64,000 nucleotides of DNA from Candidatus Levyibacteriota bacterium (GCA_003152105.1 PLZJ01000003.1:134899-198898), one strand, 5' to 3'; shown: positions 5,327-41,239, counted from the first letter of the stretch. A program made the numbers and translations. The notes: generated from the sequence alone by a model not told the origin.

Positions 5327-5368
5327 ATTGTTAAAATCAAAATTATCGATATAACCTTATACTACATA

Positions 5369-10825: not shown

Positions 10826-10857
10826 TAAATAAAACGTATAGTTCAAATTAATATAAT

Positions 10858-11862: not shown

Positions 11863-11863
11863 T

Positions 11864-15846: not shown

Positions 15847-15848
15847 TA

Positions 15849-20080: not shown

Positions 20081-20326
20081 TTTCTTAATCTTAAAGGAAA
20101 GTCAAAAAAAAACTGAATTTATAATGATCTCTTAAAACTTAAAAAGTGTATAGCCTATGTTATATTTTAATCAACCTATTAGGATATGATTTACTCAGAT
20201 TTTATAACACAAATCCTAACTTATTTGAATTTGATATACTACAAAGTCAAAACGCAAGTATTCATTCTTGAGATAAGAAAATAATTCTATTATAATTGAA
20301 AATTAAATTCCCTATATTTTACTAAC

Positions 20327-21826
20327 TTGATTATTATGTATAAAAGCCTCATATCAATAATTAAAAAACATATTGATCTGTTATTTATTGCTTTGGGTTT
20401 ATCTTTAGCACTCAGTTTAAGTCTATATTATCTTGGTAATAAAAGTTTATTTTTGGATGAAGTAGGTTCATTTACCATCACACAAAATTGGACGCACATG
20501 CAGAGCATTTTTAGAAATTCTGAAGGCAATATGTGGTTTTACTACATTCTTTTATACTTCTGGACTAGACTAGGCACGAGTGAAATTATATTAAGAAGTT
20601 TGTCTGCGATTTTTGCTATAGCAACAATTATTCCATTATTTTATCTTACAAAACATATTTTTGGGAATAGAACTGCACGTATCTCAATGATATTATTCCC
20701 AATCAATATTTTTTTTGTTAAGAATGCTCAGTTTGCTCGTGGATATAGTTTATTAATACTTCTTACCACTATCTCATCATATTTATTCTTGCTTTATGTT
20801 CATACATCTAAAAAACGCTACTTATTACTTTATATTATACTAAGCGTACTAAGTGTATATACTCATTTATTTGCTCTATTTGTAATTGCTTCACAATTAT
20901 TCTCTTTAATGTTTCTTCAAAATAAAAAATCTTGGAAATATTTTGCCGTAGCTTATGCTTTAATTCTCGTTTTAATAATACCTATATTTATTTCTCCTTC
21001 CATACATTCCCAGCAAATTAATTGGATAATGAAGCCTACATTAATTTATTTTGTGGGTATATATGCTATTTTATCCGGCGATTTTCTCCCGACTACTCTT
21101 ATATCGAGTTTATTGATCCTATGGTATTTATACTCTATCTGGAATCATGGTAAATTTAAATCTATTATTAATGATTATAATTTTAAATTTGTAGTGATAA
21201 GTTTTTTATTACCATGTATTGCTTCATTTATTTTTTCATTAACTGTAAAACCAATCCTTGTTTTGGAGTATTTAGTTATTTGTTTAGTACCTTTTATACT
21301 ATTACTATCGGCAGCCTTTGACACTATTTATGGTACAAGATTATTTAAAATTATATTGGTTTTATTTATTTTATTTTCCATTATACGTTTACATGGCTGG
21401 TATTCTGAAGATCAAAGATTTGCAGTTGCGATACCTAATAATACTGAGAATTGGAAAACTGCAGCTCAATTAGTTTCAAATTATGCAAAAAATAATGATG
21501 CGTATTTAGTTTTACCCACTTATTCGCTATCATGTTTTAACTATTATTATAATCAAGAAAATTTAAACACAAAAGTTACTGAACTAAAATTGATTATTAA
21601 TAATTCCTCAATCGAAGTTATCTCTAACAATCACATATCACCATTATCAACAATTTTTCAAAAGTATAAAAGGATATGGTATATGCAAGATGTAGTTGCC
21701 GGAGTTGGATACAATAAAATGGAATCAGATATTAATAAGTTATTAAATAAAAAGTATACGTTGATGAGTGGCGTAAAGTTCTTTAGATTAACTGTGTATC
21801 TTTATGAACTTAAGAAAAATAAGTAA
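20327..21826 (+). CDS. polytopic membrane glycosyltransferase-like protein (GT39/ArnT/PMT-like, putative)
   Basis: 499 aa. N-terminal two thirds has ~11 TM helices, C-terminal third is soluble. Architecture matches GT-C enzymes (ArnT / dolichyl-phosphate-mannose protein mannosyltransferase family). Confidence 0.45.
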   Translation: MIIMYKSLISIIKKHIDLLFIALGLSLALSLSLYYLGNKSLFLDEVGSFTITQNWTHMQSIFRNSEGNMWFYYILLYFWTRLGTSEIILRSLSAIFAIATIIPLFYLTKHIFGNRTARISMILFPINIFFVKNAQFARGYSLLILLTTISSYLFLLYVHTSKKRYLLLYIILSVLSVYTHLFALFVIASQLFSLMFLQNKKSWKYFAVAYALILVLIIPIFISPSIHSQQINWIMKPTLIYFVGIYAILSGDFLPTTLISSLLILWYLYSIWNHGKFKSIINDYNFKFVVISFLLPCIASFIFSLTVKPILVLEYLVICLVPFILLLSAAFDTIYGTRLFKIILVLFILFSIIRLHGWYSEDQRFAVAIPNNTENWKTAAQLVSNYAKNNDAYLVLPTYSLSCFNYYYNQENLNTKVTELKLIINNSSIEVISNNHISPLSTIFQKYKRIWYMQDVVAGVGYNKMESDINKLLNKKYTLMSGVKFFRLTVYLYELKKNK

Positions 21827-21832
21827 TACTAT

Positions 21833-22549
21833 TCAAAAGAATAAAATATTATGAGATATGAAATAGAAAGTTATTTGAAAAAGTAGATAAAATATCATCA
21901 CTAAATAAATATTTTTCCAGAAGAAATATAATAATGTGCCACAAAGTCCATAGAGTATAATTATTATTAGTTGTTCATTATTAGTAGTACTATGAAAAAA
22001 TCCATATAGTATTATCGTAAAGATAACTCCAGTTATTGGATTTATCAAGTTGCAAACTGCATTTTGTATTAGTCCTTGAAAATATAATGCTTCACTAACT
22101 GATGAAAGTAAGATAATTAAAGCTGACAAAAATAATGGTAAATTGCTATGAGGCAAATATAGCCCAGCTAAAATACCAAATAATACAGCATAAATCAAAC
22201 TTAAAATTATAAACTTAAATGATCTTAGGTGATAAAGCTTATTTTTTAAAGGTAAGAATGAATAAAATAGTTCAGAAATTATAAGAAGAGATGCGAAAAT
22301 AAATATATCTCTAACTATTAAAGATTGTATAAATAAAGATATAACAAATAATGACAAAAAAGGAATAACACTCAAGTAAGCAAATAGCACTTCTGCATAT
22401 AAATCAAAAATATCATAAATTGTTAAGAACAATAAAAGAATGACCATAGCTGATGTAACTAGTATTCCAACCTGAGGATATAAAACTAAATTAACCTGAG
22501 ATATAAAAAGGAGCGTGAAAACGCATATTAGTAAGTATAAGTGTTTCAT
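21833..22549 (-). CDS. CPBP-family (CAAX protease/Abi-like) intramembrane metalloprotease, putative
   Basis: Polytopic. Motifs SVSEALYFQG (EExxxR-like motif 1) and ILYGFFHST (FxxxH motif 2). Confidence 0.4.
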   Translation of the reverse strand: MKHLYLLICVFTLLFISQVNLVLYPQVGILVTSAMVILLLFLTIYDIFDLYAEVLFAYLSVIPFLSLFVISLFIQSLIVRDIFIFASLLIISELFYSFLPLKNKLYHLRSFKFIILSLIYAVLFGILAGLYLPHSNLPLFLSALIILLSSVSEALYFQGLIQNAVCNLINPITGVIFTIILYGFFHSTTNNEQLIIIILYGLCGTLLYFFWKNIYLVMIFYLLFQITFYFISHNILFF

Positions 22550-24502: not shown

Positions 24503-26029
24503 GTGCTAGTGAACACTGATATTGCATTGGGAAAACAAGTAAACCAAATTAAGATCGAGAATAAGATAAACAGAAATGTTTATTTGTTAATTACTCTTAC
24601 TTGCTTATTATTTATAATAGTCTTTGCTTTAATATTAGTGAAATTATTGTTTCGTAAACCCTCGGAGCAGCTATATTTAGCTTCTACTTCTCAAAGTCAA
24701 GCATCTATTAACACAAGTAAATTTCCAAATTTAAATCCCTCAAAGCCTTATTACGGAGTAAATGTTGATATGGATCAACTTATTCCAGGATCTAGCAATT
24801 ATTCCATAAACGCGAAAGGCGAGGATTATATAGATATAGCACATCATTTAGGAATAAATCTCTTCCGTATAGATAATGCTATAAGAGGATTTCCGGGAAA
24901 TACTATTTATTCTGAAGCACAATGGAATTATGTACTTGGTAAAATGCAAAAAAATGGAATAAAGGCAATTATACTTATTGAAGGAGTGGATGGTGATGCA
25001 AATCTAAAATCTGATAATATAAATAACGCGTATCTGAACTTCATTCAAAAATATATTATAGATTCTAATGTTGGATATAATTCAGATGTAATAGGTATTG
25101 ATTTAAAAAACGAACCTACATTATCTACTAACAATGTATTATATTTAAAACAAGCAACACAATTAGTTAAAAATAAATACTCTAAAATGCCAGTCTGTGT
25201 AGGGGGTTGGAGAATTGATACTGGGAAGAAAAAAAATGATGGAACTCGTTATTATATTTACAATCAACCTCTTGATGCATCATCACTTTCATCAATAGTA
25301 GATTTCTATTGTGTTCATGTTTATCATTTTGATGAAAAAGACTCTCATGGTAATTATCCCGACCCAACAACATTAACAACAAATTATCTACAACAAATAT
25401 CATCAGTATCAAAGAATAAACCCATATTAATTGAAGAATTTGGTGCAGCAAATAATACTACTATTACTGATCAGGAAACACTTGGAAGTGCTCAAGAACA
25501 AGCAAATGTTTACAACGGCGTATATCAATCAATTATTAAAAATAGAGCTATCAATGTTATTGGTTCTACGGCATATTTATTTGCACCTAGGGGTTCTATA
25601 CCTGATAGCTGGGCAATCTTAAGTAAAAATGGTAATGATATTGATTTCGCAGCTTATGTTTTGCAAAAATATTCTTTAGACAAGTCTGACATATCTCTTT
25701 CATTACCATTTAAAAATATTCCGCAAACATATATATATAAAAATAATACTAGTGGTTCAACACAAACTGTAAAAATAGATGGTAGTATAGGTTTAGTTCT
25801 ACAACTACCTAAATATTATAAATATGTTGGGTTACTATCTTCTAAAAATTTAGCTAATCTTAATGAGGCAGTTCAATTTGATTCAAAAAACAATAATTAT
25901 GATACTGTTATTTATGCAGCTCATTTAGGAATAGTTAAATTTATAGTTTATAATAATCCACTTTGTACATTTGGAAATAGCAACTGTATAAATAATATAG
26001 TTTATTCGATAACTCTCAACATTAAATAA
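24503..26029 (+). CDS. membrane-anchored glycoside hydrolase family 5-like protein
   Basis: N-terminal TM (LLITLTCLLFIIVFALILV). Motifs IGIDLKNEPT (GH5 NEP acid/base) and ILIEEFGA (nucleophile Glu context). Confidence 0.6.
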   Translation: MLVNTDIALGKQVNQIKIENKINRNVYLLITLTCLLFIIVFALILVKLLFRKPSEQLYLASTSQSQASINTSKFPNLNPSKPYYGVNVDMDQLIPGSSNYSINAKGEDYIDIAHHLGINLFRIDNAIRGFPGNTIYSEAQWNYVLGKMQKNGIKAIILIEGVDGDANLKSDNINNAYLNFIQKYIIDSNVGYNSDVIGIDLKNEPTLSTNNVLYLKQATQLVKNKYSKMPVCVGGWRIDTGKKKNDGTRYYIYNQPLDASSLSSIVDFYCVHVYHFDEKDSHGNYPDPTTLTTNYLQQISSVSKNKPILIEEFGAANNTTITDQETLGSAQEQANVYNGVYQSIIKNRAINVIGSTAYLFAPRGSIPDSWAILSKNGNDIDFAAYVLQKYSLDKSDISLSLPFKNIPQTYIYKNNTSGSTQTVKIDGSIGLVLQLPKYYKYVGLLSSKNLANLNEAVQFDSKNNNYDTVIYAAHLGIVKFIVYNNPLCTFGNSNCINNIVYSITLNIK

Positions 26030-28302: not shown

Positions 28303-29499
28303 CTAAGGAAGGCTTGAAAAAAGATTAATTGTTTTATTTACTTCAAGAAGTGGAGTGGAAACATCTTCAGATAAATAGTGCAGCGACCCATGCAACGGAT
28401 ATATATCTGCATTATCAAACGCCTCATCAATTCGTGAATTTGCAAATAATACTTCCGCTGTATTTATGTCACCCGTTGAAAATGCAGTTGCGACGTTATT
28501 GTCATGTAGCCGCATACTGTCTACGATATAGACGACCTTTTTTTCACCATCACGAAGCTCTACTTCAGCAGGTGAAATGGGGTAAAACATATCTCGTGTT
28601 ATTTCAAGTGGCGTAACAAAAAGATTGTTTTGATCGGCACCGATTAAGCGCTGCTTATATTCTATTTCTTTTTTCCCACCGTGCTCTCTTCCTGTATATG
28701 TTTGTCCATGCATAAACGTCATCCATAATCCATTTCGTTTGACAAACGATCCTCCAATACCCGTTTTTACATTATTAAATCCATCAATAATCGGAAAACA
28801 TACTTCATCAAGTTTTATTGGACTATCTGGAAATTCATCTTGTACGTGATACACACTAAATCTGTTCGTATTACCTTGTGCTAGATTATCTTCACGAACC
28901 ATAAAAATAGCACTGTCTGCTGTAGCAGATAAAATCATGGTGTTTTTTCCAATAATACTTCGCATTACAACTGGCGGCTTTGCAATTACCATACCATCTT
29001 TGTCTTTATATATGCGAACAATCATTGGGTGATATTCAGTTGACTGGTTTGGTGGTACGGCAGTTCCTCCAGATACTGATTCGATTGTCCCATCAGGTCC
29101 AACGAGCGTTATACCATCTCGTAAATCTTCGTAGTTCCAAAGCTCCTCAGGAGACTTAGAACGATCTGGCATGCTTCCAGTTGGATCTGGGATAATAAGG
29201 GGCCCTACATCTACACCTGAGCAGGTACGAATTCGATACTCATTATAATCAACTCCATCCTCAACTGTGCCCAAATTGATAATTTGTCTGGCTAAATACA
29301 ATCCAATACCACTATGGTAACTTGCGTTAAACGCGTCCCCAAAAAGCATACGAGCTTGTATCCTATCTCCAATAACAACACTCTTTCCAACATATCCTCT
29401 GGAGATTTCAAGTTTTTCTTGCGTGGTTAAAGAAGGAGTTGGATTTATTCCAACTTCAATAGGAGAAAATGTAGAACCTGTTTCTTGCAAAACTGGCAT
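28303..29499 (-). CDS. uncharacterised cytoplasmic protein (398 aa), GC-elevated island
   Basis: Long clean ORF with noticeably higher GC than the flanks. No TM, no signal peptide, no recognisable motif. Last gene of a three-gene minus-strand set. Confidence 0.5.
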   Translation of the reverse strand: MPVLQETGSTFSPIEVGINPTPSLTTQEKLEISRGYVGKSVVIGDRIQARMLFGDAFNASYHSGIGLYLARQIINLGTVEDGVDYNEYRIRTCSGVDVGPLIIPDPTGSMPDRSKSPEELWNYEDLRDGITLVGPDGTIESVSGGTAVPPNQSTEYHPMIVRIYKDKDGMVIAKPPVVMRSIIGKNTMILSATADSAIFMVREDNLAQGNTNRFSVYHVQDEFPDSPIKLDEVCFPIIDGFNNVKTGIGGSFVKRNGLWMTFMHGQTYTGREHGGKKEIEYKQRLIGADQNNLFVTPLEITRDMFYPISPAEVELRDGEKKVVYIVDSMRLHDNNVATAFSTGDINTAEVLFANSRIDEAFDNADIYPLHGSLHYLSEDVSTPLLEVNKTINLFSSLP

Positions 29500-29593
29500 A
29501 TTTCCTTGTATATCTAAGGTTGATACAACCTGATGAGTTTGTCAATAAGAAAAGGGGATCAAATACAATTTAAGGCACGCCAACTCTTTTTAT

Positions 29594-30322
29594 CTAGTAG
29601 CCTAATTTTTGTGCTTCTTCATATGAAACTTTATAATACCGCTCTGCAAGTTGTGCTCCTAAATAAACAAAATGAGGATTTCTGTAACTTGGGAATAGGG
29701 GAATCATAGGTTCTTTATCTGATTCTGGATTATATGAGTCCGTTACGTGTTCAACAAGCGAATATCCGCTTAATCCTTTGTGGTCTTGTAAAAACGTTCT
29801 TGCCTTAACAGCAAGATCAAGCAGTCGCACATCTTGATTTATCGTACCTTCTGTATGAGTAACTTGTGCTTCTTGATTTAATTCATCGTTTAATGTTCCA
29901 TTTAGTAATGCCTCTCCAAGTGCAAGTGGCAGTCGAACCATATCAATTCCATAGGAAAAATCTGAGCTAGAAACTGCATAGGGCATATCATTTGAATGGA
30001 ATATATGACCAATCATCATTTCTTGCACCAACTGCTGATCTCTAACCATCGCTGTTGCAATTTCTCGAGTTGATGGTGGACGTCCTAATTTACTAAATTC
30101 ATCATTTCGAAGTACTTCTAGACCAGATTCTCTAAATAATTCTGGGTATCTAAGTGGAAATGACAAGGTATTTTGGCATCGTGCCAGTAGCAAATCGGTC
30201 ACTCTTCTAAAATCTTTGTTACTAATATCTGCACTTTGTTGCTGTTCACGAACAAACAAACTTGTCCGCGACGTATCAAGGTGCGTTTGCTCTAAGTCTC
30301 TCCAAGAAGAATCACGTTCCAT
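29594..30322 (-). CDS. uncharacterised cytoplasmic protein (242 aa), GC-elevated island
   Basis: Clean ORF in the GC-elevated region, no recognisable motif. Confidence 0.5.
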   Translation of the reverse strand: MERDSSWRDLEQTHLDTSRTSLFVREQQQSADISNKDFRRVTDLLLARCQNTLSFPLRYPELFRESGLEVLRNDEFSKLGRPPSTREIATAMVRDQQLVQEMMIGHIFHSNDMPYAVSSSDFSYGIDMVRLPLALGEALLNGTLNDELNQEAQVTHTEGTINQDVRLLDLAVKARTFLQDHKGLSGYSLVEHVTDSYNPESDKEPMIPLFPSYRNPHFVYLGAQLAERYYKVSYEEAQKLGY

Positions 30323-30425
30323 ATAAGATGCTATTATAGTATAAATGCTATAGGATTACAAATGAGGCCATATTATTATGTAAGGCAATAGCTAACATGA
30401 GTTACTACTTCTCCTAATACTTAGG

Positions 30426-30782
30426 TTATTTCAATCCTGAATCGGAAGTAGGACTCTGTGAATCGTTATCATTCGTGCTATCAACTACAATCAAGTGAAT
30501 TGTTCCAGTTTTTGAATGTTTCCCAATTAAATCGAATATCGTTTCTTCTAAAGATTTTTCAGCAGGTTTTGAACTAGAAAACTTTGGAATAGTATATGTT
30601 ACTCTGGGAACTGCATCTAAAACATCCTTAACAGGCGTCAAATCATGCAAGTTACCATCTGAATAAAATCCAGCGTCAATTGCTTTTTTATAATTAATCA
30701 TTCTTTGTGTAGGCACAAATTCCTTCCCTTTATTCATAGTGGCATTATAGCAAAAACTGTGTAAAAATATCTTATATAACAA
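30426..30782 (-). CDS. uncharacterised small protein (118 aa; true start may be the internal Met at 30737)
   Basis: ORF in the island. A TATAAT-like box (gctataatgcc) lies just upstream of the internal ATG (MNKGKEF...), so the N-terminus is uncertain. Confidence 0.4.
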   Translation of the reverse strand: MLYKIFLHSFCYNATMNKGKEFVPTQRMINYKKAIDAGFYSDGNLHDLTPVKDVLDAVPRVTYTIPKFSSSKPAEKSLEETIFDLIGKHSKTGTIHLIVVDSTNDNDSQSPTSDSGLK

Positions 30783-30826
30783 AAAGCAGTAAAATGTATT
30801 AAAATGGCATAAATTAACTTATAGTA

Positions 30827-30855
30827 TTGACAGTTGACCTCACATTTACTACAAT
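30827..30855 (+). promoter_or_regulatory. sigma70-like promoter (TTGACA-N17-TACAAT) in the divergent intergenic region
   Basis: ttgaca at 30827-30832 and tacaat at 30850-30855 with 17-nt spacing. A second tacaat lies at 30863-30868 immediately before ATG 30869. Confidence 0.3.
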
Positions 30856-31834
30856 TCCAAAATACAATATGGCAAGAGCTGAAAATGATCAACCACAACA
30901 AGAAAGCTTCTTAAGTAAAAGGATAGGAATGTTTCGTAAAAAAGGGATATTTTCTCCCAGTCCCGTCCAAACTGCTGATGCTGACAAACCACTCTCAGCG
31001 CAACTCCTAGGGGTAAATATGCTTGAGAGCTCAGAAGAAAATATTTCTTGGGATAAATTTAAATTTTATTTCTCAGCACTTCCTCTTTCAATCGAACAAT
31101 TAAATCCAAGTCGCGCTGGATTTGGAGATTTGTATGTAGCGCAAAGAAACTCAGGTCAACCTATAACGGTAGTTCCAATGTATATAAAGGAATGGAAAAA
31201 GGGACATCATGGATTCCATGAAGATTTACTTCTCATTCTGGCACTTAATCATCATGATCATGTTGTTGGAATGAGAACGATAAATATGAAATTTTCTGGA
31301 CCAGTAATTCAATCTGAAGGAGCAGTTGCTTCAGCTATCTGTGATGAAGGAATTGCAAGCGTCTTAGAACAAGTAAGAGATCGAACAATGCATGAACTAC
31401 TTACTAAGCTTCGTCGTGAAGGAAAAGGAATTAAGGCAATTAAACACACTGTGCAAGATGAAAATAAAGGAGCACTTGAAAAGTTTCAAAGCGAAGCACG
31501 TTTACATCCAGAAGATCCATTATTTGCAATGAGATTTGAGCATGCAAGAGAAGATAGACCAAGATGGGAAACGCTTTTTAGTCCAAGTAGTCAAAGACAT
31601 ATTAATCCAAACCAACAAATTTGGATTCAACCAAATGACTTGTTATCGAGAGGATTTTGTTCACCTGAAAAAACGGTGTTTATGATGAAAAAACAAAAAG
31701 GACAAGAGGGTACTGTGTGGGATTTTGAAGAATTTTCTGATCAAACAATTATCAGTACAATGCAACAAAGATATCTAGACAAACCTTACTTAGCAACTCA
31801 AATGAAACTTGCATTGACACAAAGACCTGAATAA
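30827..31834 (+). CDS. uncharacterised protein with protein-kinase-N-lobe-like motif order (likely real start at ATG 30869)
   Basis: The ORF track starts at a TTG that coincides with the -35-like hexamer, and the in-frame ATG at 30869 (MARAEND...) is more plausible. Ordered motifs GFGDLYVA / VVPMYIK / HEDLLL / LNHHDHVVG resemble Gly-loop, beta3-Lys, alphaC-Glu and the HPN-like segment of kinases. No HRD/DFG motif found. Confidence 0.45.
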   Translation: MTVDLTFTTIPKYNMARAENDQPQQESFLSKRIGMFRKKGIFSPSPVQTADADKPLSAQLLGVNMLESSEENISWDKFKFYFSALPLSIEQLNPSRAGFGDLYVAQRNSGQPITVVPMYIKEWKKGHHGFHEDLLLILALNHHDHVVGMRTINMKFSGPVIQSEGAVASAICDEGIASVLEQVRDRTMHELLTKLRREGKGIKAIKHTVQDENKGALEKFQSEARLHPEDPLFAMRFEHAREDRPRWETLFSPSSQRHINPNQQIWIQPNDLLSRGFCSPEKTVFMMKKQKGQEGTVWDFEEFSDQTIISTMQQRYLDKPYLATQMKLALTQRPE

Positions 31835-31869
31835 CAAATTAAGCAGTAATCGCTACTTATATCACTTAG

Positions 31870-32469
31870 TTAGGATTTTTGATATACCTTTTTAAATTGC
31901 GGAAGATCAGCTGCTCTCTTCTCTCTCTTATATCCAAGTTCTACGGCTAGGGCACTTGACCATCCGCTTCGTACTATTGAAGTATCATTATCATCGCTTG
32001 CACTTGCTGCATCAATAATTCTGGCGATTACCGTTTTTCCATCAAAATCCTCTGGATATCTTCTCATAACATCTCTAATAACCCGGTCAGACATAAGACC
32101 AAGTGTTGAACCAAGACCTTTCCCTTCAAATCCTGGTCTTGTAAGCGAGGCAGACGTAATAGTAATTACTCCGTTTTTCGTATGATTAAAATAAAATGAT
32201 CTTCCTGAAACTTCTCCACCCATTAGCACTACTTTACTTAAATTATTATCAGTATACAGAGAATCGGCAAGTGCTGAAGGCTGTGTAAGCGACAGCACAA
32301 GTCGTGCCTGACGAGCATAAATGTTATGCACATAGTACGCCAGTATATAAGGAGTGCGTTCAATGATTTGTTCATGAGATCCAACAAAACCATTAGAATC
32401 ACTAGATCTTTCAAATGGAAGTGAAGCTGATCTTCCTTTTATTGCTGGTCTATTCTCGAGTCCTATCAT
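31870..32469 (-). CDS. GNAT-family N-acetyltransferase-like protein (putative)
   Basis: FEGKGLGSTLGLM resembles GNAT motif A (R/Q-x-x-G-x-G/A). C-terminal ...SALAVELGYKRE resembles a GNAT terminal strand. 199 aa. Confidence 0.4.
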   Translation of the reverse strand: MIGLENRPAIKGRSASLPFERSSDSNGFVGSHEQIIERTPYILAYYVHNIYARQARLVLSLTQPSALADSLYTDNNLSKVVLMGGEVSGRSFYFNHTKNGVITITSASLTRPGFEGKGLGSTLGLMSDRVIRDVMRRYPEDFDGKTVIARIIDAASASDDNDTSIVRSGWSSALAVELGYKREKRAADLPQFKKVYQKS

Positions 32470-32566: not shown

Positions 32567-33469
32567 CTATAAATCGGTTACTTGAGGAATTACTTCGAGA
32601 GATACTTTTTTAATCGGATCTATTTCATACATGGTAGGAATGCCCATTATTGCATGATCAATTCCAAGACTATGAAGATGCTTTAATTCTTCAACTACTT
32701 TTTTTGCATCAAACTCAGGTGGCACTTGATAGAGAACTGTTTTTTCAATTTCATCATAATTTCTCCCAACATCGCTGCAATGTTTTTTTAATATATCAAG
32801 TTTTCGAACGAGTTCCTCTTCACCAGCTCTTGCAAATAAATTACATGCATCTGCATACTGTGCAACGTATCGAAGGGTCTTTTTTTCACCACCACCACCA
32901 ATTAATATTGGAGGATGTGGTTTTGAAATAGCTTGCGGATGATTCAAAGGACGGGGGAGAGTAAATTGTTTTCCAGTAAATGCACGCTCATCATCGCTCC
33001 ACATTTGCTTTGCTAGTTTTAATACATCTTCTAGTTGTTCAAATCTGACTTTAATTTCAGGAAATGGAAACCCAAGTGCTTTCGATTCACTTTCATTCCA
33101 TGCAGCACCAACACCAAAATATGCTCTTCCATTACTAATAACATCAAGCGTAGTTACTGCTTTTATTAAAAGTGCAGGTTGTCGATAGATAACTCCCGTA
33201 ACCATTGTTCCAAGTTTTACCTGTTTTGTAATACCAGCTAAATACCCAAGTGTAGTATATGCTTCAAGCATTGGCTCTTCTTCAGGACCGATATATTCTA
33301 TTTGGAAAAAATGATCCATTACCCATAAACTAGAAAAGCCGCCTTTATCAGCAGTTTGTGCAATTTTTGTAAGTATCGAATGGATTGTTTTTGGCTCTCC
33401 AGGCCAAGTGAATTTACTAATTTGAAGTCCGACTTTCATTTCTATAAGTGTAGCGCATTTTTGTAACAT
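32567..33469 (-). CDS. LLM-class (luciferase-like) F420-dependent oxidoreductase
   Basis: MKVGLQISKFTWPG...SLWVMDHFFQ...GTMVTGVIYRQPALLIKAVTTLDVISNGRAYFGVGAAW is a typical luciferase-like monooxygenase / F420-dependent TIM-barrel signature. Confidence 0.75.
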   Translation of the reverse strand: MLQKCATLIEMKVGLQISKFTWPGEPKTIHSILTKIAQTADKGGFSSLWVMDHFFQIEYIGPEEEPMLEAYTTLGYLAGITKQVKLGTMVTGVIYRQPALLIKAVTTLDVISNGRAYFGVGAAWNESESKALGFPFPEIKVRFEQLEDVLKLAKQMWSDDERAFTGKQFTLPRPLNHPQAISKPHPPILIGGGGEKKTLRYVAQYADACNLFARAGEEELVRKLDILKKHCSDVGRNYDEIEKTVLYQVPPEFDAKKVVEELKHLHSLGIDHAIMGIPTMYEIDPIKKVSLEVIPQVTDL

Positions 33470-33522
33470 TTGTGTAAGAAAATATAAACTCTATTGACTT
33501 ATATTTTATATAGTTATATGCT

Positions 33523-33936
33523 TTGTACACAAAACATATGGATAATAGTAAAATCATTGAGGAATTTCGAAAAAACCACGGTAAAGTAGGCGGCATGTTT
33601 GAGGGAATGAATATTTTGCTTGTGACTGCAATTGGTGCAAAATCTGGCAAAGAAATTACCTTTCCCGTTGCGTATACCATTGACGATGGTCAATATATCA
33701 TTGTTGCATCCAAAGGGGGAGCACCTGAGAATCCAAGTTGGTATTATAACTTAACTTCACATCCTCAAGTAGTTGTTGAACTAGGTGATGAAAAATTCAA
33801 TGCGGTTGCTAAGGAAACAATCAATGAAGAAAGAGAACGATTATTTGATTTACACGCAAAAGTTTATCCAACCTTCTATGAATATAAAGCAAAAACATCA
33901 CGAGTTATTCCTGTCTTTTTACTCAAAAGAGCATAA
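33523..33936 (+). CDS. Ddn/DUF385-family deazaflavin (F420H2)-dependent reductase (split-barrel)
   Basis: HGKVGGMFEGMNILLVTAIGAKSGKEITFPVAY...APENPSWYYNLTSHPQVVVELGDEKF matches the nitroreductase-family deazaflavin-dependent oxidoreductase signature (GxKSGK...NP.WY.NL). Confidence 0.7.
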   Translation: MYTKHMDNSKIIEEFRKNHGKVGGMFEGMNILLVTAIGAKSGKEITFPVAYTIDDGQYIIVASKGGAPENPSWYYNLTSHPQVVVELGDEKFNAVAKETINEERERLFDLHAKVYPTFYEYKAKTSRVIPVFLLKRA

Positions 33937-34205
33937 TATATTCTCCTAACTATTGACTTCCATAATCTCCAGAATAGTATCTCAAATGTATATTACATGA
34001 AAGTGAAAAAGAAATAATAAAAATATAGTATATGAGTGGAATGGCAGGGGGAAGAAAATAGGCGCAGAATTGCGTTTTGCGTGCGAGCCCTGGTTGGGGA
34101 TCGTGCCTATTTCTTCTTTCATGCGTATGCATGCCTGCCACTCCTTGGCATCACCTCCTTTCATAGAAATATTTTAGAATCGAACTCTGTGGTTACCCGA
34201 CGTCC

Positions 34206-34850
34206 TTACAGACTTGCTGCAACAACGGGATCCATGTCCATCATGATAACGTGGATTTCCACTTCTCCGTCGACAAGATTACCGAACATGTCACCCATAT
34301 GAAGTCGATACGAGTTGCGTATCTTTTCAGAGGCGGCGGCATCAAGACGCAACTGACATGGTCTGCATGACCGAACGTGATCCTTGAGCTCGCTACTGAG
34401 GTACGGAAATTCGTCGACGGTGAACTCTACTCTGGTCGTCAATCTCTCGAAAGGGTCATCCACCGAGGGTCGATGAGTGAGCAAATCGAACCAATCGAGC
34501 GTGAGTTGCCGATCACAGAGCGCATCCGAAAGATGGGCGACGCCGTCGAAAGGAACCACGCACGCAAAGATTGGGTTTTCGAGATAACGGTTGACATCGT
34601 TATAGAGCAACTGGCCGGGGCCGAGAACAAGAACCAGTGGGCAAGAAGTAAGAAGCTTCGAAAAGTCTTCGCTCTTATTGGCGTAATCGATGATCGACTC
34701 GAGTGAGCCGGTATCCACAACCACAACGTAGTCGCTTGGCCAGCTATCGAAATCAACCACGATCGCATCTTCACTCAAGTCCTCTGGTAGAGCCTTGATA
34801 AGTTCCTCTGAGACTCCCTCGAAAATATACACGAATCGAATTCCTTTCAC
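34206..34850 (-). CDS. hypothetical protein (214 aa) in a local high-GC patch
   Basis: Clean ORF with the highest GC in the window (~50%). No recognisable motif. Overlapping short plus-strand ORFs are likely spurious. Confidence 0.4.
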   Translation of the reverse strand: MKGIRFVYIFEGVSEELIKALPEDLSEDAIVVDFDSWPSDYVVVVDTGSLESIIDYANKSEDFSKLLTSCPLVLVLGPGQLLYNDVNRYLENPIFACVVPFDGVAHLSDALCDRQLTLDWFDLLTHRPSVDDPFERLTTRVEFTVDEFPYLSSELKDHVRSCRPCQLRLDAAASEKIRNSYRLHMGDMFGNLVDGEVEIHVIMMDMDPVVAASL

Positions 34851-35193
34851 GTGAATCAGGTTTTGACTACTCTACGATCTCTGATATTTCATGAGCACTT
34901 CTTAGTAAAAAGCCTCATCCTCTTCCTTCTCTTATTCTTTGTTTTGTTTTTAGTTCACATGCGTAACTCCGTTAACATAAAATTATCATTCCAAAATGGA
35001 AGACACTTTAAGTACCATGTAAAATGATAATCAAAGTGCCTTCCACTTGTATTTCTATAAAGGTGTTAATGAGCCAGTAAAAAAGTAAAAACAACATTTA
35101 ATAGGCAGCTTATGCCTAATTTGCTGTTTTTAGTTTAGGAATTGTATCAGAAAGCATTACATTAGTCAATTACTACAGGGTGAAAAAAGAGAT

Positions 35194-35787
35194 TTATGTA
35201 TGTACATTTTGTGACTTAGAAAATAAAGCTAAATCATCCATAGTATCAATATCAAACGCAGTTGTATTATTCACATATACGTAGTAAGACAAATTATTGT
35301 TTTTTGCACACTTTTCAAATTTTTTTAGACTGTTTCGCCCAAATAAATAGGGGAGTAGTAATGGTTTTTTCATAGCTATTGCGTTTGTTCCTGTTTGCTC
35401 TTTGGAAGAAGCAAAAACAATATCATATTTTCCAAGTAGAGTTACCATATCCTGTACATTCTGGGTCGTAACAAGAGGCAAATCAGAAGAAATAACCAGA
35501 AGTGGTTTTGATTCTACTAATAAAGAGGCTTCAGTCAACGCCTTATTATGTGTTGTTGTTTTGTCAAAAAGTGTTTTTACACCAAATTCTTTTGCTAAAC
35601 TTGCTACTTTCTTGTCTTTTGAAACCAAGTAAATGTCGTCACATACTTTTGAGTGAATAAGAGTAGCTATAACGTGAGATACCATTGATAATACCAACGC
35701 TTCTCTTTGTTCGATACTTAATTGTTTTGAAAGTCGAGACTTTGCATTTGCTAATAACTTAACAGGTATTAATACATTTACTTTCAT
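35194..35787 (-). CDS. cofC: 2-phospho-L-lactate (or PEP-derived) guanylyltransferase CofC
   Basis: MKVNVLIPVKLLANAKSRLSKQLSIEQREAL... matches the CofC/MobA-like N-terminus (IPVK.L..AKSRL). GTNAI motif. 197 aa. Immediately downstream of cofD with a 4-nt overlap. Confidence 0.8.
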   Translation of the reverse strand: MKVNVLIPVKLLANAKSRLSKQLSIEQREALVLSMVSHVIATLIHSKVCDDIYLVSKDKKVASLAKEFGVKTLFDKTTTHNKALTEASLLVESKPLLVISSDLPLVTTQNVQDMVTLLGKYDIVFASSKEQTGTNAIAMKKPLLLPYLFGRNSLKKFEKCAKNNNLSYYVYVNNTTAFDIDTMDDLALFSKSQNVHT

Positions 35788-36707
35788 ATTGCATGTAAAA
35801 CAGTTTCAGCTAATGCTTTCTTTGATAGCAGCGTTTTCATTATTGTATTGGTAATGACAACTTTTATAGCAAATCGTTCAATTTCTTTTTTTAATACACT
35901 ATCCTTCTTATCAATTATCAAAACATCGATAAAGTCTTGATACAGTTTTGCAACACCAATGGCGGATGGTTCAAATCCAAGACCTGAGAGCATCTTATCT
36001 GCTGGACCTTTAATTGTTTTTCCTGCAATTATTGGACTTATTGCTATTTTTTTAGCTTTTGCTTGAAATAACAATTCTCGCATTGTAGGAACTGCTAAAA
36101 TTGCGCCGATACTAACAATTGGATTACTAGGAGCAACAATAATACAATCTGCTCCCGCAATTGCCTCTTTTACCTCATCACTTGGGGTTGCCTGTGCGAT
36201 CCCTTTAAACCACACATCCACTACCTGATCTTTGCATTTTCTTTTTACAAAATATTCCTGAAAGGGAAATACTCCCTTTCTTGTATGTACCATTGTTGTA
36301 ATCTTGTCATTTGTCATTGGAAGAAGAGCTATGGGAATGTTATATCTTTCAACGAGTTGTTTTGTTACTTCAGTTTTTGTTTTACCGCTTTGAAGTAGTG
36401 AAGTACGTAGCAGATGTGTTGCAATATCTTTATCACCAAGCGTAAACCACGTATCAATTCCTAGTTTCTTAAGTTGAGAAAGCGTCGTATATGTGTCATT
36501 TTTTACACCCCATCCTTGTTTTTTATTATTGTTCCCAGATAGTGTATAGATAATAGTGTCAATATCAGGACATACGTATAGACCGTAAAACTCTTCGTCA
36601 TCTCCAGTATTCACGATTACGGTAATGTCTTTTGGATCAGTAACTTTGACGAGTCCTTCTAAAAATCGTGCGGCTCCAACGCCACCTGCGAGTACTGTTA
36701 TTTTCAT
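35784..36707 (-). CDS. cofD: 2-phospho-L-lactate transferase CofD (F420-0 synthase)
   Basis: MKITVLAGGVGAARFLEGL N-terminus characteristic of the CofD/YvcK family. 307 aa. Sits between cofE and cofC. Confidence 0.85.
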   Translation of the reverse strand: MKITVLAGGVGAARFLEGLVKVTDPKDITVIVNTGDDEEFYGLYVCPDIDTIIYTLSGNNNKKQGWGVKNDTYTTLSQLKKLGIDTWFTLGDKDIATHLLRTSLLQSGKTKTEVTKQLVERYNIPIALLPMTNDKITTMVHTRKGVFPFQEYFVKRKCKDQVVDVWFKGIAQATPSDEVKEAIAGADCIIVAPSNPIVSIGAILAVPTMRELLFQAKAKKIAISPIIAGKTIKGPADKMLSGLGFEPSAIGVAKLYQDFIDVLIIDKKDSVLKKEIERFAIKVVITNTIMKTLLSKKALAETVLHAI

Positions 36708-36710
36708 ATG

Positions 36711-37469
36711 CTAACGGAATAAGTCAATTTTTGCATTTCGTAAAAGCGTTTTTGCATCTGTATTTTTTTCTTGATATGCATAGCCTCGGATATGAGCAGC
36801 TGGAACTTTATCTACTTTTCCCATTACAAGTTCTGCACTTGCTGCAAGTTCATCTGCTATACCAATAACACTGGCAGAAAGCGTATACCCATACGAATCT
36901 TTTTCTCCTCTATAATCACGTATTGCCTCCATTCCTGCTACGCCAATTGCAAAATTTACTTGCCCTTCTCTCCATGGCCTTCCCCATGTATCAGAAATGA
37001 TAACCGCGACTTTTTGTACACCACTTAGTTCTTGCAGATTACTTCGAATAAGTTTTGCGGATGCATCTGGATCGCTGGGTAAAAGCGTTGCCGTGTCTGT
37101 GTTTCCAACATTTGATTGATCTATACCAGCATTTGCGCATATAAAACCTTGTTTTGTTTCAGAAATAATTACCCCATGATCCATACGAACTATTCGTTTA
37201 CTTTCTCGAAAAATCAATTCAATAAGACGTGGGTCTTTTTTAAATTCAGTTGCAAAACCTATTGCTTTATCAGAGGGTTCTATTTCGGAAAGCAAAACAA
37301 CTTGCCCTTCAGCTTTGGATACGATTTTTTGTGTAACAACAAGTATGTCACCCTCTTCTATATGAAGATTCTGTTTTTTACATGATGAAACTAAATGCAT
37401 TGCAATGTTTGAGGCTTTTGTAATTTCTCCTATATGCGTAAGAGGTGAAATAATTACTGTATCAGTCAT
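36711..37469 (-). CDS. cofE: F420-0:gamma-glutamyl ligase CofE
   Basis: EEGDILVVTQKIVSKAEGQVV and GANAGIDQSNVG motifs typical of CofE. 252 aa. 4-nt overlap with the upstream Fgd-like gene. Confidence 0.8.
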   Translation of the reverse strand: MTDTVIISPLTHIGEITKASNIAMHLVSSCKKQNLHIEEGDILVVTQKIVSKAEGQVVLLSEIEPSDKAIGFATEFKKDPRLIELIFRESKRIVRMDHGVIISETKQGFICANAGIDQSNVGNTDTATLLPSDPDASAKLIRSNLQELSGVQKVAVIISDTWGRPWREGQVNFAIGVAGMEAIRDYRGEKDSYGYTLSASVIGIADELAASAELVMGKVDKVPAAHIRGYAYQEKNTDAKTLLRNAKIDLFR

Positions 37470-38449
37470 AATGCCCTAAGATTTGGCAGTACCTCTTTTC
37501 CAAGCAGTTCTATAATAGCAGTCTGATTTTTTCCTGTTGTTTGTATAACTACCGTATCAGCATTTACCGTTGTTATCAGTGGTGCATAATTTTCAATATA
37601 ATCAGAAGCGTTTGCAACGATTGAATACCTTGAGAGGATATCTTCTTTTGAAAGCGAATCTGCTTCATCTTGCAACTGCTTTGGATCAACCGCATGATCT
37701 CGGCTAGGAGCTCTGAGCCCTCTCCAAGGCTGAATAGCCAAAAACGCTTCGTCATCATTTTGTGCATAAATTGACCATCTACTTGCTGTTACTTGAAAAT
37801 CTTTTTTCCCAATTGCTTTTGCTTTATCTCGGGTAGGTGATACAACAAGATTTGCACTGTCATCTGCATTTTTAACACTAACAATAATGCCATCTGCATG
37901 TTCAGCAGAGAGCATTCCTGATTTTGGACCTCCAGCAGCAAGAAGTATCGGAACTTTATGTAGCGGAGGGGAGTACAGTTTTACATTTTTAGTTTGATAA
38001 TACTCGCCCTTAAACGTAACTTTTTCTCCGCTTAATAATCTCTGCATAATTTCTAATGCTTCAATCATTCGCTCTGATCGTTCTTTATATTTTGGAAATT
38101 CATACCCAAGTGGAGATTCGTTAATTGATTCACCTGTGCCAACTCCTAAACTTACCCGACCATTCGAAAGTCTATCAATTGTTGCAATTGCTTGTGCAAC
38201 AACTGCTGGATGGTAACGAAAGAGGGGAGTGACAACACCTGTCATCAGTTCTATTTTTTTCGTTGCTTGTGCAACTGCGCCAAGTGTTGCAAATGCAAAC
38301 CCTGAACTTCCTTTATCCTCAACCCATGGATGAAAGTGTTCAGAAACAAAAAGCCCATCAAATCCTGCTTTTTCAGCAAGTACAGCATGTGAAACTAATT
38401 CTTCGGGCTGAAATTGTTCATGTCCTAAATAATAATAGAGTTTTTTCAT
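37466..38449 (-). CDS. F420-dependent glucose-6-phosphate dehydrogenase-like LLM oxidoreductase (Fgd family)
   Basis: LGHEQFQPEELVSHAVLAEKAGFDGLFVSEHFHPW...TPLFRYHPAVVAQAIATIDRLSNGRVSLGVGTGESINE closely parallels the mycobacterial Fgd1 N-terminal half (LGYKASAEQF..., DHFQPW, TPTFRYNPAVIAQAFAT, RVFLGVGTGEALNE). Confidence 0.75.
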   Translation of the reverse strand: MKKLYYYLGHEQFQPEELVSHAVLAEKAGFDGLFVSEHFHPWVEDKGSSGFAFATLGAVAQATKKIELMTGVVTPLFRYHPAVVAQAIATIDRLSNGRVSLGVGTGESINESPLGYEFPKYKERSERMIEALEIMQRLLSGEKVTFKGEYYQTKNVKLYSPPLHKVPILLAAGGPKSGMLSAEHADGIIVSVKNADDSANLVVSPTRDKAKAIGKKDFQVTASRWSIYAQNDDEAFLAIQPWRGLRAPSRDHAVDPKQLQDEADSLSKEDILSRYSIVANASDYIENYAPLITTVNADTVVIQTTGKNQTAIIELLGKEVLPNLRAL

Positions 38450-38508: not shown

Positions 38509-39438
38509 TTATTCTTTAAGAAGTAATATGTATAAGAATATGAGGCTTGGGATAACAAAAACCATCCCAATACCAAATGACCAAAGCATAAGTTGAAATG
38601 TTTTCAAATCAGTAAACGCGTTATATATGGTAATACTTGGATAAATAAGATAGGGCAAATGAAGGAGGGCAAAGAAAAATAATACTGCTCCCATTAAAAG
38701 AGATATCGTAAGAAATAATAATAAATGTTTTCTTGCAACAAAGAATACCAAGGAAGAAAGTAATAAGAAAATAATTATACTACTATAGATATGTAGGTTA
38801 GCATCGCTCAGTAACATCCAGGAAGAAGTGTGGATAAGATCATACATAAATAATATAAGACTTAAAACAAATATGACATATGAAAAGGAAAGTATTCTTC
38901 TGAGTAAATGGAAATCAGATTTATTTTTACTATAAAATTGATAAAACGATCCAGAAATTAATAGTATGTTTGACAAAACAAGCGCATATATAGGTAAGTT
39001 AAGATTTTGCAAAAAGAGATTAGTAGTATTTCCTGTTATCATATATACAAACCCAGAAGAAAAGAAAAGAGGAGCTAAGAAACAAGATAGAAAAAATACT
39101 ATTCTAATCAACTTCGAATCCATATCACCATAAAAAAGAAATAACATACAAGCAGATCTTACACCAAGAAATAAAAATGCTATAAGGAGCGGAACTATTA
39201 AATTCGTTCCAAAAAAATAGGTTGATTTTGGAAAAAACGTAAAAATACAGATAATAGTGAAAACTAAAAACACATTTGTCGTTTCCCAAATAGGGGATAT
39301 AGCTTGTTTTAACAAGATGTCATTTCTTAGTATTTTTGGGAATAGTAAAAAAAATGATGTTCCATATTCAATTGAAGTAAAAAGCATATACGCATATAAA
39401 AATACAAGTGGAATGAGAGCAGCTAATAATTGATACAT
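38509..39438 (-). CDS. cydB: cytochrome bd oxidase subunit II (CydB), putative
   Basis: 309-aa polytopic membrane protein immediately downstream of cydA (6-nt gap). Assigned by operon context and topology. Confidence 0.5.
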   Translation of the reverse strand: MYQLLAALIPLVFLYAYMLFTSIEYGTSFFLLFPKILRNDILLKQAISPIWETTNVFLVFTIICIFTFFPKSTYFFGTNLIVPLLIAFLFLGVRSACMLFLFYGDMDSKLIRIVFFLSCFLAPLFFSSGFVYMITGNTTNLFLQNLNLPIYALVLSNILLISGSFYQFYSKNKSDFHLLRRILSFSYVIFVLSLILFMYDLIHTSSWMLLSDANLHIYSSIIIFLLLSSLVFFVARKHLLLFLTISLLMGAVLFFFALLHLPYLIYPSITIYNAFTDLKTFQLMLWSFGIGMVFVIPSLIFLYILLLKE

Positions 39439-39444
39439 AATAAA

Positions 39445-40779
39445 TTATAGATCAAGCTTATTCTTTTTATAATGTCGTTTTAAAATCCAAATAGTAACTG
39501 CAAATAAAAAGATATAAAGAGTAGGGAAGAGGTATCCAAATGTTGCAACTGAGGTAGAAGTTGTAAACGCTTGTTTTGTTGTCATAATGCCTCTTATTGC
39601 AAATGGTTGACGACCAACCTCAGTTAATATCCATCCAAATTCAACTGCACAAAATGAAACCACACCAGAGAGAAAAAGTAACAGAAGCATTATTTTTGAA
39701 AAGGCAAATGCTTTTTTAAAACGGGCAAGCAGTAGGAAGAGTAGGGGAATGATCGTGATAAATATGCCACTGCCAACCATAAAATCAAACATATAATGAA
39801 TCCAAAGTGGTGGCCATAATGTTGGATTAAAATAATTAAGTCCCAGAACTCTTGCCTGAGTGGAACCAAAAGAAAGGAAACTAAGTAAGCCTGGGATGGT
39901 AAGTGCATGTAATACACCATGATTTGTTGTAATACCTAAAACTTGAAGTGGAGCATTTGTTTGCGTGGTATAAAGTCCTTCTGCTGCTGCAAGTTTTAGT
40001 GGTTCTGATTGTGCTAAATATTTTGCCGAAGAATCTCCCGTTAGACCAATTAAAAGAACAAAAATAAAACTTACACAAACCAAAAAAGTGATAGTTTTTT
40101 TATAATACATTTTGCGTTTTAATTCTTTTTTATCATTTATTTTTGATTTAAATAAAAATAACGCGTACATTCCTGCAAAAAATAAACACGTTGTTAGATA
40201 ATAAGAAACGATTGAGTGAGTGGTTTCTGTTGGCGTTGCTTGATTAAACATTGCTTTTATTGGATCTATGTTACTTGCTATACCATGTTTATAAGTAAAT
40301 CCAGCTGGGGAGTTCATAAATGCATTTGCTGTTGTAATAAAAAAAGCTGAAGCAACCGAACCCAGAACAATCGGCAATGAACAAAGCCAATGAATATAAG
40401 GATTTTTAAATCGCTTCCAGGTAAAAAGATAAATACCAAGAAAAATTGCCTCAATAAAAAAAGCAAATCCTTCCAAGAAAAAGGGGAGTCCAATTACTTT
40501 ACCAGCAAGTGCCATAAACGTTGGCCAAAGCGTCGAAAGTTGAGTTGATATTATCATTCCGGAAATTGCACCTGTAACAAACAATACGCTCATCACATAA
40601 GACCACCTCTTTGCCATTGTTGTATATAAAATATCATGTCTTACTATACCAAGAAGTTCAGAAAGTGAAACAAGTAGGGGAATGCCAACACCAAGGAGAG
40701 CAAAGATGATGTGAAACCCAAGTGAATCTCCCATTAATGTACGACCATAGTCTAGTTGCATATAGTAATTATAAGACAA
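39445..40779 (-). CDS. cydA: cytochrome bd ubiquinol oxidase subunit I (CydA)
   Basis: GFHIIFA N-terminal helix. LPFFLEGFAFFIEAIFLGIYLFTW matches the CydA consensus ([22 protein letters not shown]). 444 aa, 9 TM. Confidence 0.8.
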   Translation of the reverse strand: MSYNYYMQLDYGRTLMGDSLGFHIIFALLGVGIPLLVSLSELLGIVRHDILYTTMAKRWSYVMSVLFVTGAISGMIISTQLSTLWPTFMALAGKVIGLPFFLEGFAFFIEAIFLGIYLFTWKRFKNPYIHWLCSLPIVLGSVASAFFITTANAFMNSPAGFTYKHGIASNIDPIKAMFNQATPTETTHSIVSYYLTTCLFFAGMYALFLFKSKINDKKELKRKMYYKKTITFLVCVSFIFVLLIGLTGDSSAKYLAQSEPLKLAAAEGLYTTQTNAPLQVLGITTNHGVLHALTIPGLLSFLSFGSTQARVLGLNYFNPTLWPPLWIHYMFDFMVGSGIFITIIPLLFLLLARFKKAFAFSKIMLLLLFLSGVVSFCAVEFGWILTEVGRQPFAIRGIMTTKQAFTTSTSVATFGYLFPTLYIFLFAVTIWILKRHYKKNKLDL

Positions 40780-40876: not shown

Positions 40877-41239
40877 ATGTGGATCCCTCTATTTCTAATT
40901 GTTCTTGGTTTGTTAGCAGGAGGATTAAGTGGATTAATCGGCATTGGGGGTGGCATTATAATAGTACCCGCTCTTGTGTATCTATTTGGTCTTTCTCAAC
41001 AACAAGCTCAAGGAACAACTCTTGCTCTTCTTCTTCCTCCAATCGGCATCCTTGCTGTATGGCAATATTATAAACATGGATATGTAGATTTTAGGATCGC
41101 ACTATTTATTATTATTGGTTTTTTGATAGGTAGTCTTTTTGGTTCCCGTTTTGCAACAGCACTTCCTGCAAATGTCTTATCAAAAATATTTGGCATTACA
41201 CTACTTCTTGTATCTCTTAAAATGCTTTTCACAAACTAA
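40877..41239 (+). CDS. TauE/SafE-family (sulfite exporter-like) membrane protein, half-size single-repeat form
   Basis: GLIGIGGGIIIVPALVYLFGL motif typical of TauE/SafE (DUF81). Only 120 aa with ~4 TM, i.e. one repeat unit. Confidence 0.5.
   Translation: MWIPLFLIVLGLLAGGLSGLIGIGGGIIIVPALVYLFGLSQQQAQGTTLALLLPPIGILAVWQYYKHGYVDFRIALFIIIGFLIGSLFGSRFATALPANVLSKIFGITLLLVSLKMLFTN

Follow-up and report, generated by a model that had tools for sequence, protein, structure and literature searches.

A putative cofactor F420 module in a Patescibacteria genome and its recurrence in other low-GC loci

The 64,000-nucleotide stretch of DNA from a Candidatus Levyibacteriota bacterium analysed here (GCA_003152105.1 PLZJ01000003.1:134899-198898; hereafter the window) carries six open reading frames (ORFs) for cofactor F420: CofC, CofD and CofE, two luciferase-like (LLM) F420-dependent oxidoreductases designated LLM1 and LLM2, and a Ddn-type reductase of the FDOR-A class. 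All six are present at the coordinates given in an initial annotation of the sequence (Table 1), which had also described LLM1, cofE, cofD and cofC as an operon with 4-nt overlaps. Such overlaps are found between LLM1 and cofE, where the LLM1 stop lies in the cofE start (ATGA), and between cofD and cofC (ATGA), whereas 3 nt lie between cofE and cofD, which do not overlap. The Ddn-type gene ends where it had been placed, and its start is put by the gene callers at ATG 33538 (132 aa) rather than at TTG 33523.

Table 1. Predicted features at and around the F420 locus (window coordinates)
Feature	Position	Strand	Description
LLM1	37466..38449	-	TIGR03557-family ('F420_G6P_family') luciferase-like F420-dependent dehydrogenase
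cofE	36711..37469	-	F420-0:gamma-glutamyl ligase, 252 aa, single-domain
cofD	35784..36707	-	2-phospho-L-lactate (or enolpyruvyl) transferase; Fo + activated C3 acid
cofC	35194..35787	-	guanylyltransferase; activates 2-phospho-L-lactate or phosphoenolpyruvate
GC-rich insert with orphan ORF	34020..34870 (ORF 34206-34832, 208 aa)	-	recognised by composition
Ddn-type FDOR-A	33538..33936	+	F420H2-dependent reductase; family includes mycobacterial menaquinone reductases
LLM2	32567..33469	-	TIGR03560 (Rv1855c-type) F420-dependent luciferase-like oxidoreductase; conserved terminal gene of the module
cydA (39445-40779) and cydB (38509-39438)	38509..40779	-	cytochrome bd quinol oxidase; PF01654, PF02322

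Family assignment was based on the curated cut-offs of NCBIfam hidden Markov models (HMMs) and on Pfam, both run on the window proteins. All six proteins passed their curated cut-offs, and Pfam was concordant with NCBIfam for each of them. CofE scored 264.7 against a cut-off of 180.65 (TIGR01916; PF01996 on residues 13-229, E = 1.5e-70), CofD 344.3 against 257.45 (TIGR01819, profile positions 1-300 of 301 matched), CofC 141.2 against 105 (TIGR03552), LLM1 227.4 against 210.4 (TIGR03557), LLM2 280 against 231.4 (TIGR03560), and the Ddn-type protein 90.4 against 46.35 (TIGR00026; PF04075 E = 1e-36, positions 7-128 of 130). By their family membership, CofC, CofD and CofE are shown as the enzymes predicted to convert Fo to F420-n. 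CofC would activate a C3 acid with GTP, CofD would transfer the activated acid to the deazaflavin Fo, and CofE would add the glutamate tail.

The host was identified from one marker, DnaB (59218-60549), whose close relatives share 69-73% identity with it. Its identity to proteins of Levybacteria and other Patescibacteria is 70-73%, and of the 120 best matches all but two of those that carry names belong to Levybacteria, Berkelbacteria or 'Patescibacteria group'. This bears out the suggestion that the host is CPR-like (Candidate Phyla Radiation), and by this marker it is a Patescibacteria/CPR bacterium. The Rfam scan of the window gave tRNA-Leu alone and no rRNA gene. The window lies on a 1,139,039-bp scaffold, of which a 1,149,594-bp version exists in another assembly, and besides dnaB it contains the housekeeping genes efp, yebC, rluA and pepA together with many ORFs without family. 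These results support the view that the genes belong together as one F420 module, for tail biosynthesis and utilisation, in a genome truly of CPR type.

The gene order LLM1-cofE-cofD-(cofC)-LLM2, with or without an FDOR-A gene, was found in about nine other low-GC loci (GC 0.33-0.38; Table 2), at least one of them labelled Saccharimonadales, and the module is thus not peculiar to the window genome as had been supposed. Identities to the window proteins are 61-72% for LLM1, 49-64% for CofE, 51-64% for CofD and 62-73% for LLM2. LLM2 has orthologues at six other loci. At five of these (L084, L086, L088, L090 and L091) the orthologue directly follows cofC or cofD, and in L093 it is one gene off, a single opposite-strand gene lying between cofC and LLM2. 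An FDOR-A homologue directly adjoins the module in L090, L091 and L094. The Ddn-type clade at 58-71% identity includes a Saccharimonadales protein, and the Saccharimonadales genome with the module has a Ddn-type gene on another contig. Judged from gene order and identity, the six genes of the window appear as a recurrent unit, and their recurrence in other CPR genomes indicates that F420 is probably part of the metabolism of these bacteria. We consider it likely that the window genes represent, in this genome, an F420 module conserved among Patescibacteria, with the salvage and redox scheme proposed below.

Table 2. Gene order at related low-GC loci
Locus	Gene order
L011	LLM1-cofE-cofD-cofC
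L084/85 (labelled Saccharimonadales)	LLM1-cofE-cofD-cofC-LLM2
L086/87 and L088	LLM1-cofE-cofD-LLM2, no cofC in operon
L090	Ddn-LLM1-cofE-cofD-cofC-LLM2
L091	LLM1-cofE-cofD-cofC-LLM2-Ddn
L093	LLM1-cofE-cofD-cofC-x-LLM2-LLM
L094	LLM1-Ddn
L097	fragment: cofE-cofD-cofC

Many LLM1 homologues occur at 59-73% identity, and the named ones are labelled Saccharimonadales or 'Patescibacteria group bacterium', with one exception that bears the name 'Candidatus Sulfotelmatobacter'. The label 'Candidatus Sulfotelmatobacter sp.' is carried by a DnaB 72% identical to that of the window and by the LLM1 homologue of L094, whose context has a GC of 0.33 and has DUF1905/OmdA and PfkB in common with the Saccharimonadales genome. 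These entries look like mislabelled Patescibacteria metagenome-assembled genomes.

Outside CPR, a scan of GTDB with CofD gave 43-55% identity at most, to Dehalococcoidia, Binatia and Thermoproteota. A metagenome scan, by comparison, found a higher-GC group (0.47-0.59) with the order cofE-x-cofD-cofC, where x is a 216-aa PF00881 nitroreductase (NTR); one of these loci bears Ktedonobacteraceae/Ktedonosporobacter names. With identities to the window of 55-61% for CofE and 36-44% for CofC, this group is as close as the CPR copies are, and CofD is 51-55% identical. In the CofE tree, eight CPR and 15 nitroreductase-type loci formed one clade (67/100, or 99/100 with three more tips). An exclusive CPR clade of CofD, seen by neighbour-joining of 86 sequences (86/100), was withdrawn after 80 metagenome loci had been added, since with this wider sampling the CPR copies of both CofD and CofE intermix with Chloroflexota-type sequences. 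The shared origin of the CPR copies therefore rests on their shared derived gene order and not on the trees. By sequence, the CPR cofE/cofD/cofC core appears most closely related to Chloroflexota (Ktedonobacteria) operons, which reflects either an old transfer or shared ancestry, and the features predicted to be derived in CPR are the loss of the nitroreductase and the gain of the flanking LLM1 and LLM2.

The Chloroflexota likeness of CofC, CofD and CofE is also what would be seen if the F420 region had recently been acquired by horizontal transfer, or were a chimera of assembly or binning, with an F420-using organism (Chloroflexi, Actinobacteria, an archaeon or the like) as its source. Two measures of composition agree with such an origin: GC is 0.35-0.40 over 28-38.5 kb and about 0.32 in the window as a whole, and the tetranucleotide correlation between the module and the rest of the window, a measure confounded by amino-acid composition, is 0.92 and so below that of random 5-kb pieces (0.97 +/- 0.01). 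However, the GC at third codon positions (GC3) of the F420 genes (0.19-0.25) is like that of housekeeping genes (dnaB 0.17, efp 0.19, pepA 0.23), and their raised total GC sits in the first codon positions, as in other conserved enzymes. Relative synonymous codon usage (RSCU) of the module correlates with that of housekeeping genes at r = 0.90, with overlapping per-gene values (0.67-0.85 for the module, 0.74-0.91 for housekeeping genes). The GC-elevated island, from which the initial annotation had argued for horizontal acquisition, is therefore rejected as evidence for it, and because codon usage matches the host, the F420 genes appear to be long resident in the genome. Furthermore, the best foreign proteins are 50-61% identical at most, a like architecture occurs in other low-GC CPR loci, and a recently foreign look is confined to the 850-bp insert. 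As for a chimera, the tetranucleotide signature is indeed slightly deviant, but the locus and its junctions were reproduced on three large contigs and in independent short-read (Logan) assemblies of three runs. We regard a recent acquisition or a chimera as extremely improbable.

Two further alternatives concern the chemistry of the product and the source of Fo. CofE is without the FbiB-type C-terminal nitroreductase domain, and neither the window nor the flanks of related loci contain a PF00881 protein that might serve as a dehydro-F420-0 reductase; an archaeal-type route from 2-phospho-L-lactate (2-PL), an unlinked reductase and a dehydro-F420 product are therefore all possible. When CofC was aligned to 7p97, it showed Gly in place of Ser162 and Thr in place of His145, and it kept the ligand residues Lys, Asp of DLP, Thr-Asn, Ser and Asp-x-Asp. 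Ser or Thr at the Ser162 position of Mycetohabitans CofC is diagnostic for the use of 3-phosphoglycerate (PMC8764529). The route to 3PG-F420 (F420 made from 3-phosphoglycerate) is rejected on this diagnostic residue, and the kept ligands together with Gly at the Ser162 position therefore predict 2-PL or phosphoenolpyruvate (PEP) as the substrate. 2-PL and PEP are not separable from the CofC sequence (PMC8764529), and CofC might use PEP to give a non-canonical deazaflavin, either dehydro-F420 itself or a product reduced by a non-orthologous enzyme such as LLM2. The missing PF00881 protein and the place of LLM2 next to cofC or cofD agree with this, as does the direct junction of cofE and cofD in CPR loci, whereas the nearest relatives have cofE-NTR-cofD-cofC. 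A nitroreductase might, however, be encoded elsewhere. The archaeal pathway uses 2-PL with a single-domain CofE and without a nitroreductase, so that an extra enzyme is not strictly needed, and we know of no LLM that reduces dehydro-F420. A non-canonical product seems to us rather unlikely. With regard to Fo, no Fo synthase (CofG/CofH or FbiC) was found in the 64-kb window, in line with what had been noted before, or within 10 kb of the module in related loci with flanks. Salvage is thus plausible, and Fo would most likely be taken up from neighbouring or host organisms that make F420 or Fo, for instance methanogens, Actinobacteria or Chloroflexi. F420 could instead be made wholly de novo, in which case the genes for Fo synthase and for its precursors from the riboflavin pathway would lie at other places on the chromosome and there would be no salvage. 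The Fo genes of most known F420 producers occur together with cofC/D/E without having to adjoin them (PMC8498797). Moreover, the window covers a small part of the scaffold, and proteins with a RibD_C domain are encoded close to the module at L084 and L086. CPR genomes, on the other hand, usually lack riboflavin and aromatic amino-acid biosynthesis, the sources of the Fo precursors, and with no radical-SAM Fo synthase near any of these modules we think wholly de novo synthesis unlikely. Fo salvage is preferred here over an unlinked Fo synthase, with confidence that is about even.

No conserved Fo transporter was found near the related modules, where scattered EamA (L091) and MFS (L090, L084) genes form no consistent pattern. 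In L091 the gene of an EamA (DMT-family) transporter (1154-2107) immediately precedes LLM1 in the same orientation, and in L090 an MFS transporter (325-1782) lies divergently upstream of the module. These two are candidate importers of Fo or flavin, although the pattern is inconsistent across loci.

In the scheme that we prefer, salvaged Fo is converted to F420-n and the cofactor is then reduced by LLM1. The catalytic residues His40 and Trp44 are conserved in all 120 homologues of the LLM1 clade and Glu109 in 118 of them, and all three are kept in the window protein. Basic residues at or adjoining three phosphate-pocket positions of Fgd1 (Lys198, Lys259 and Arg283) are also conserved across the 120 homologues, with Arg or Lys at the Arg283 position in 97; the pocket alignment includes a one-residue register shift at Lys198, and the placement of Lys259 is alignment-dependent. 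Two of the three basic residues are absent from hydroxymycolate dehydrogenase. The matches of LLM1 in the PDB included Fgd1, fHMAD and Adf, all at about 1e-50 to 1e-54. The conserved His, Trp and Glu and the putative basic phosphate-type pocket favour a sugar-phosphate dehydrogenase that reduces F420, and LLM1 is thus probably an F420-reducing enzyme whose likely substrate is a phosphorylated sugar. F420 would accordingly be reduced at the expense of a sugar phosphate, and the F420H2 formed would be re-oxidised by the Ddn-type FDOR-A and LLM2.

The closest solved relatives of the FDOR-A protein include MSMEG_3356 (3h96) and MSMEG_2027 (4y9i), which belong to class FDOR-A1; mycobacterial enzymes of this class reduce menaquinone and feed the respiratory chain (PMC8498797). 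Directly upstream of LLM1 on the same strand lie cydA (PF01654, E = 2e-110) and cydB (PF02322, E = 5e-30), and their presence makes the 'fermentative' nature ascribed to the host questionable. The 59-nt gap between cydB and LLM1 holds no terminator-like site, and an extended -10-like TGCTATGAT read by eye in this gap indicates that LLM1 may have its own promoter. The FDOR-A1 resemblance and the adjacent cydAB suggest, for the window organism and from this one locus, a path from F420H2 through quinone and cytochrome bd to O2, in which FDOR-A may pass electrons to an assumed quinone and the adjacent cytochrome bd may then oxidise the quinol with O2. Quinone reduction by FDOR-A is here inferred from its family and the neighbouring cydAB, and cydAB is possibly linked in function to the F420 genes. 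A conserved linkage of cydAB was also sought in the nine related loci and rejected, as none of them has cydAB within 10 kb of the module. The window also has a half-length TauE/SafE gene (40877-41239, 120 aa) beside cydA.

Several points weigh against this picture of a salvage-fed redox module. LLM1 scored 203.6 against a cut-off of 420 for the Fgd equivalog TIGR03554 and can therefore be assigned to the subfamily only, and it is 35% identical to Fgd1 of Mycobacterium tuberculosis and 33% to that of Rhodococcus jostii. The name 'Fgd-like' thus holds for the TIGR03557 subfamily and not for the Fgd equivalog, and given the same values the regeneration of F420H2 from glucose-6-phosphate proposed earlier is plausible rather than established. 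A 62%-identical homologue of LLM1 stands alone in a high-GC, non-CPR-looking locus (L092), so the role of LLM1 need not be tied to the module. Use of PEP, the substrate in the Chloroflexi relatives, would call for a dehydro-F420 reductase, and none was seen. The adjacency of cydAB is unique to the window among the loci examined, and the quinone of the proposed electron path is assumed for the window organism. The modules of L086 (8166-11761) and L088 (10001-13615) have no cofC in the operon or in the surrounding 10 kb; these genomes may encode it at another place, or the activation step may proceed differently. CPR affiliation is given by label in a few of the related loci and for the rest comes from low GC and gene order. 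The search for Fo synthase covered the 64-kb window, about 6% of the scaffold, and the related flanks. Finally, all the proposed steps are predictions from sequence.

The module can be compared with four known systems. As in the mycobacterial Fgd1/Ddn/FbiABCD system, an Fgd-family LLM would reduce F420 and a Ddn-like FDOR-A would use F420H2, and the catalytic His40, Trp44 and Glu109 are conserved in LLM1, along with a putative basic phosphate pocket. In contrast to that system, LLM1 has low identity to Fgd1 and fails TIGR03554, no FbiC was seen, CofE carries no fused FbiB nitroreductase domain, and the genes form one compact cluster, whereas the mycobacterial genes are scattered. The archaeal 2-PL pathway likewise has a stand-alone CofE without a dehydro-F420 reductase, CofC is of the 2-PL/PEP type, and all three enzymes pass the same equivalog models. 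In contrast to the module, which has no visible Fo synthase and bacterial-type LLM and FDOR-A partners, archaea have CofG/CofH and use F420 in central energy metabolism. Mycetohabitans (Paraburkholderia) rhizoxinica is, like the window organism, a host-associated bacterium outside the classical F420 phyla, and its 3PG-F420 system needs no dehydro-F420 reductase; however, the window CofC is without Ser162 and His145, so that 3PG-F420 is not predicted, and M. rhizoxinica is without known F420-dependent enzymes, whereas the module has three. The Chloroflexota (Thermomicrobia/Ktedonobacteria-type) operon has the closest sequences found, the same order of cofE, cofD and cofC, a single-domain CofE and often an F420-dependent LLM or PPOX gene after cofC. 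The CPR module differs from it in that a nitroreductase gene is missing between cofE and cofD, that cofE is translationally coupled to the gene of an Fgd-like LLM upstream of it, that a TIGR03560 LLM lies downstream, and that the setting is low-GC genomes of about 1 Mb.

The known distribution of F420 covers Euryarchaeota, Actinobacteria, Chloroflexi, some Proteobacteria and a few candidate phyla. CPR is not among the phyla with F420 genes listed in a 2021 review of F420, a full-text literature search combining F420 or deazaflavin with CPR names found no paper on the subject, and F420 is unmentioned in a 2026 review of the phylum and in two papers of 2025 on CPR metabolism. The initial view that F420 in CPR is essentially undescribed thus agrees with the literature searched, although the genes are already correctly named in public annotation. 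The parts are ordinary members of known families, and what is new is a conserved, streamlined module in Patescibacteria. Such a module would add a low-potential redox cofactor to the sparse metabolism of ultra-small, host-dependent bacteria, points to a testable dependency on partner-supplied Fo, and suggests how a stand-alone cytochrome bd oxidase could get electrons in the window genome. It also gives F420 biochemistry a compact, naturally occurring operon with five or six genes and no nitroreductase that could be expressed heterologously. More tentatively, and with doubts that outweigh our confidence, some CPR bacteria may pirate Fo from hosts or neighbours that produce F420, convert it with a nitroreductase-less CofCDE and run a minimal loop from sugar phosphate through LLM1 and F420H2 to FDOR-A, which in the window genome would feed a scavenged quinone and an otherwise orphan cytochrome bd. 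If this is true, it would provide an electron-input route to CPR terminal oxidases whose donors were unclear, the module would mark host range at the genome level, and LLM2 might represent a novel kind of dehydro-F420 reductase.

The GC-rich insert between cofC and the Ddn-type gene spans about 850 bp with a GC of about 0.49-0.54 in a genome of about 32% GC, and its composition boundaries are sharp. Its orphan ORF, which lies in the 1.26-kb gap between the two genes, has a GC of 0.50, a GC3 of 0.56, an RSCU correlation to host genes of -0.08 and a tetranucleotide correlation of 0.06. Because both junctions were reproduced in an independent assembly of run SRR7151521, the insert is real; by composition it appears to be foreign DNA, and the sole compositionally foreign piece at the module. 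The insert is absent from all related loci, and the insert and the Ddn-type gene appear to have split an ancestral cofC-LLM2 junction in the window. The ORF matched no Pfam or NCBIfam family and no plasmid, and its homologues among 1.84 billion representatives are four and weak (24-31% identity). It contains an H-x3-C-x2-C motif (HVRSCRPC), and there is no sign of a role of the insert in F420 metabolism.

Other observations concern the neighbourhoods of the related loci and the rest of the window. PAS-HisKA sensor kinases adjoin the module in L084 (15546-16988), L086 (6467-8071) and L093 (8095-9921), directly upstream in the latter two, and none is near the window module; the arrangement points to regulation that responds to redox state or O2. 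Just downstream of the lone LLM1 homologue of L092 are two half-length TauE genes (11807-12588), which recalls the half-length gene next to cydA and may be a coincidence. In the window, five consecutive ORFs at 28303-32469 (398, 242, 118, 335 and 199 aa) have no Pfam match and use codons as the host does (RSCU r = 0.94 to housekeeping genes for four of the five). The protein encoded at 1794-2450 has two CxxC-x17-CxxC domains (TIGR04272, E = 9e-31), a domain originally described from Methanosarcina. A region of very low GC (24-27%) at 8748-22549, further from the window average than the F420 region, holds a glycosylation or exopolysaccharide cluster with several GT2 and GT4 glycosyltransferases, a GT2-DUF2206 fusion (968 aa), a Wzx-type flippase, an exosortase-EpsH-like membrane protein, a PMT_2 protein and an Rce1-like protease. 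Two GH5 cellulase-family proteins are encoded at 4142-7315 and 24503-26029, one of them with a C-terminal type I dockerin, together with CBM_4_9 carbohydrate-binding proteins; a dockerin is unusual in a CPR genome and hints at binding to a partner's scaffoldin or at plant-polymer degradation.

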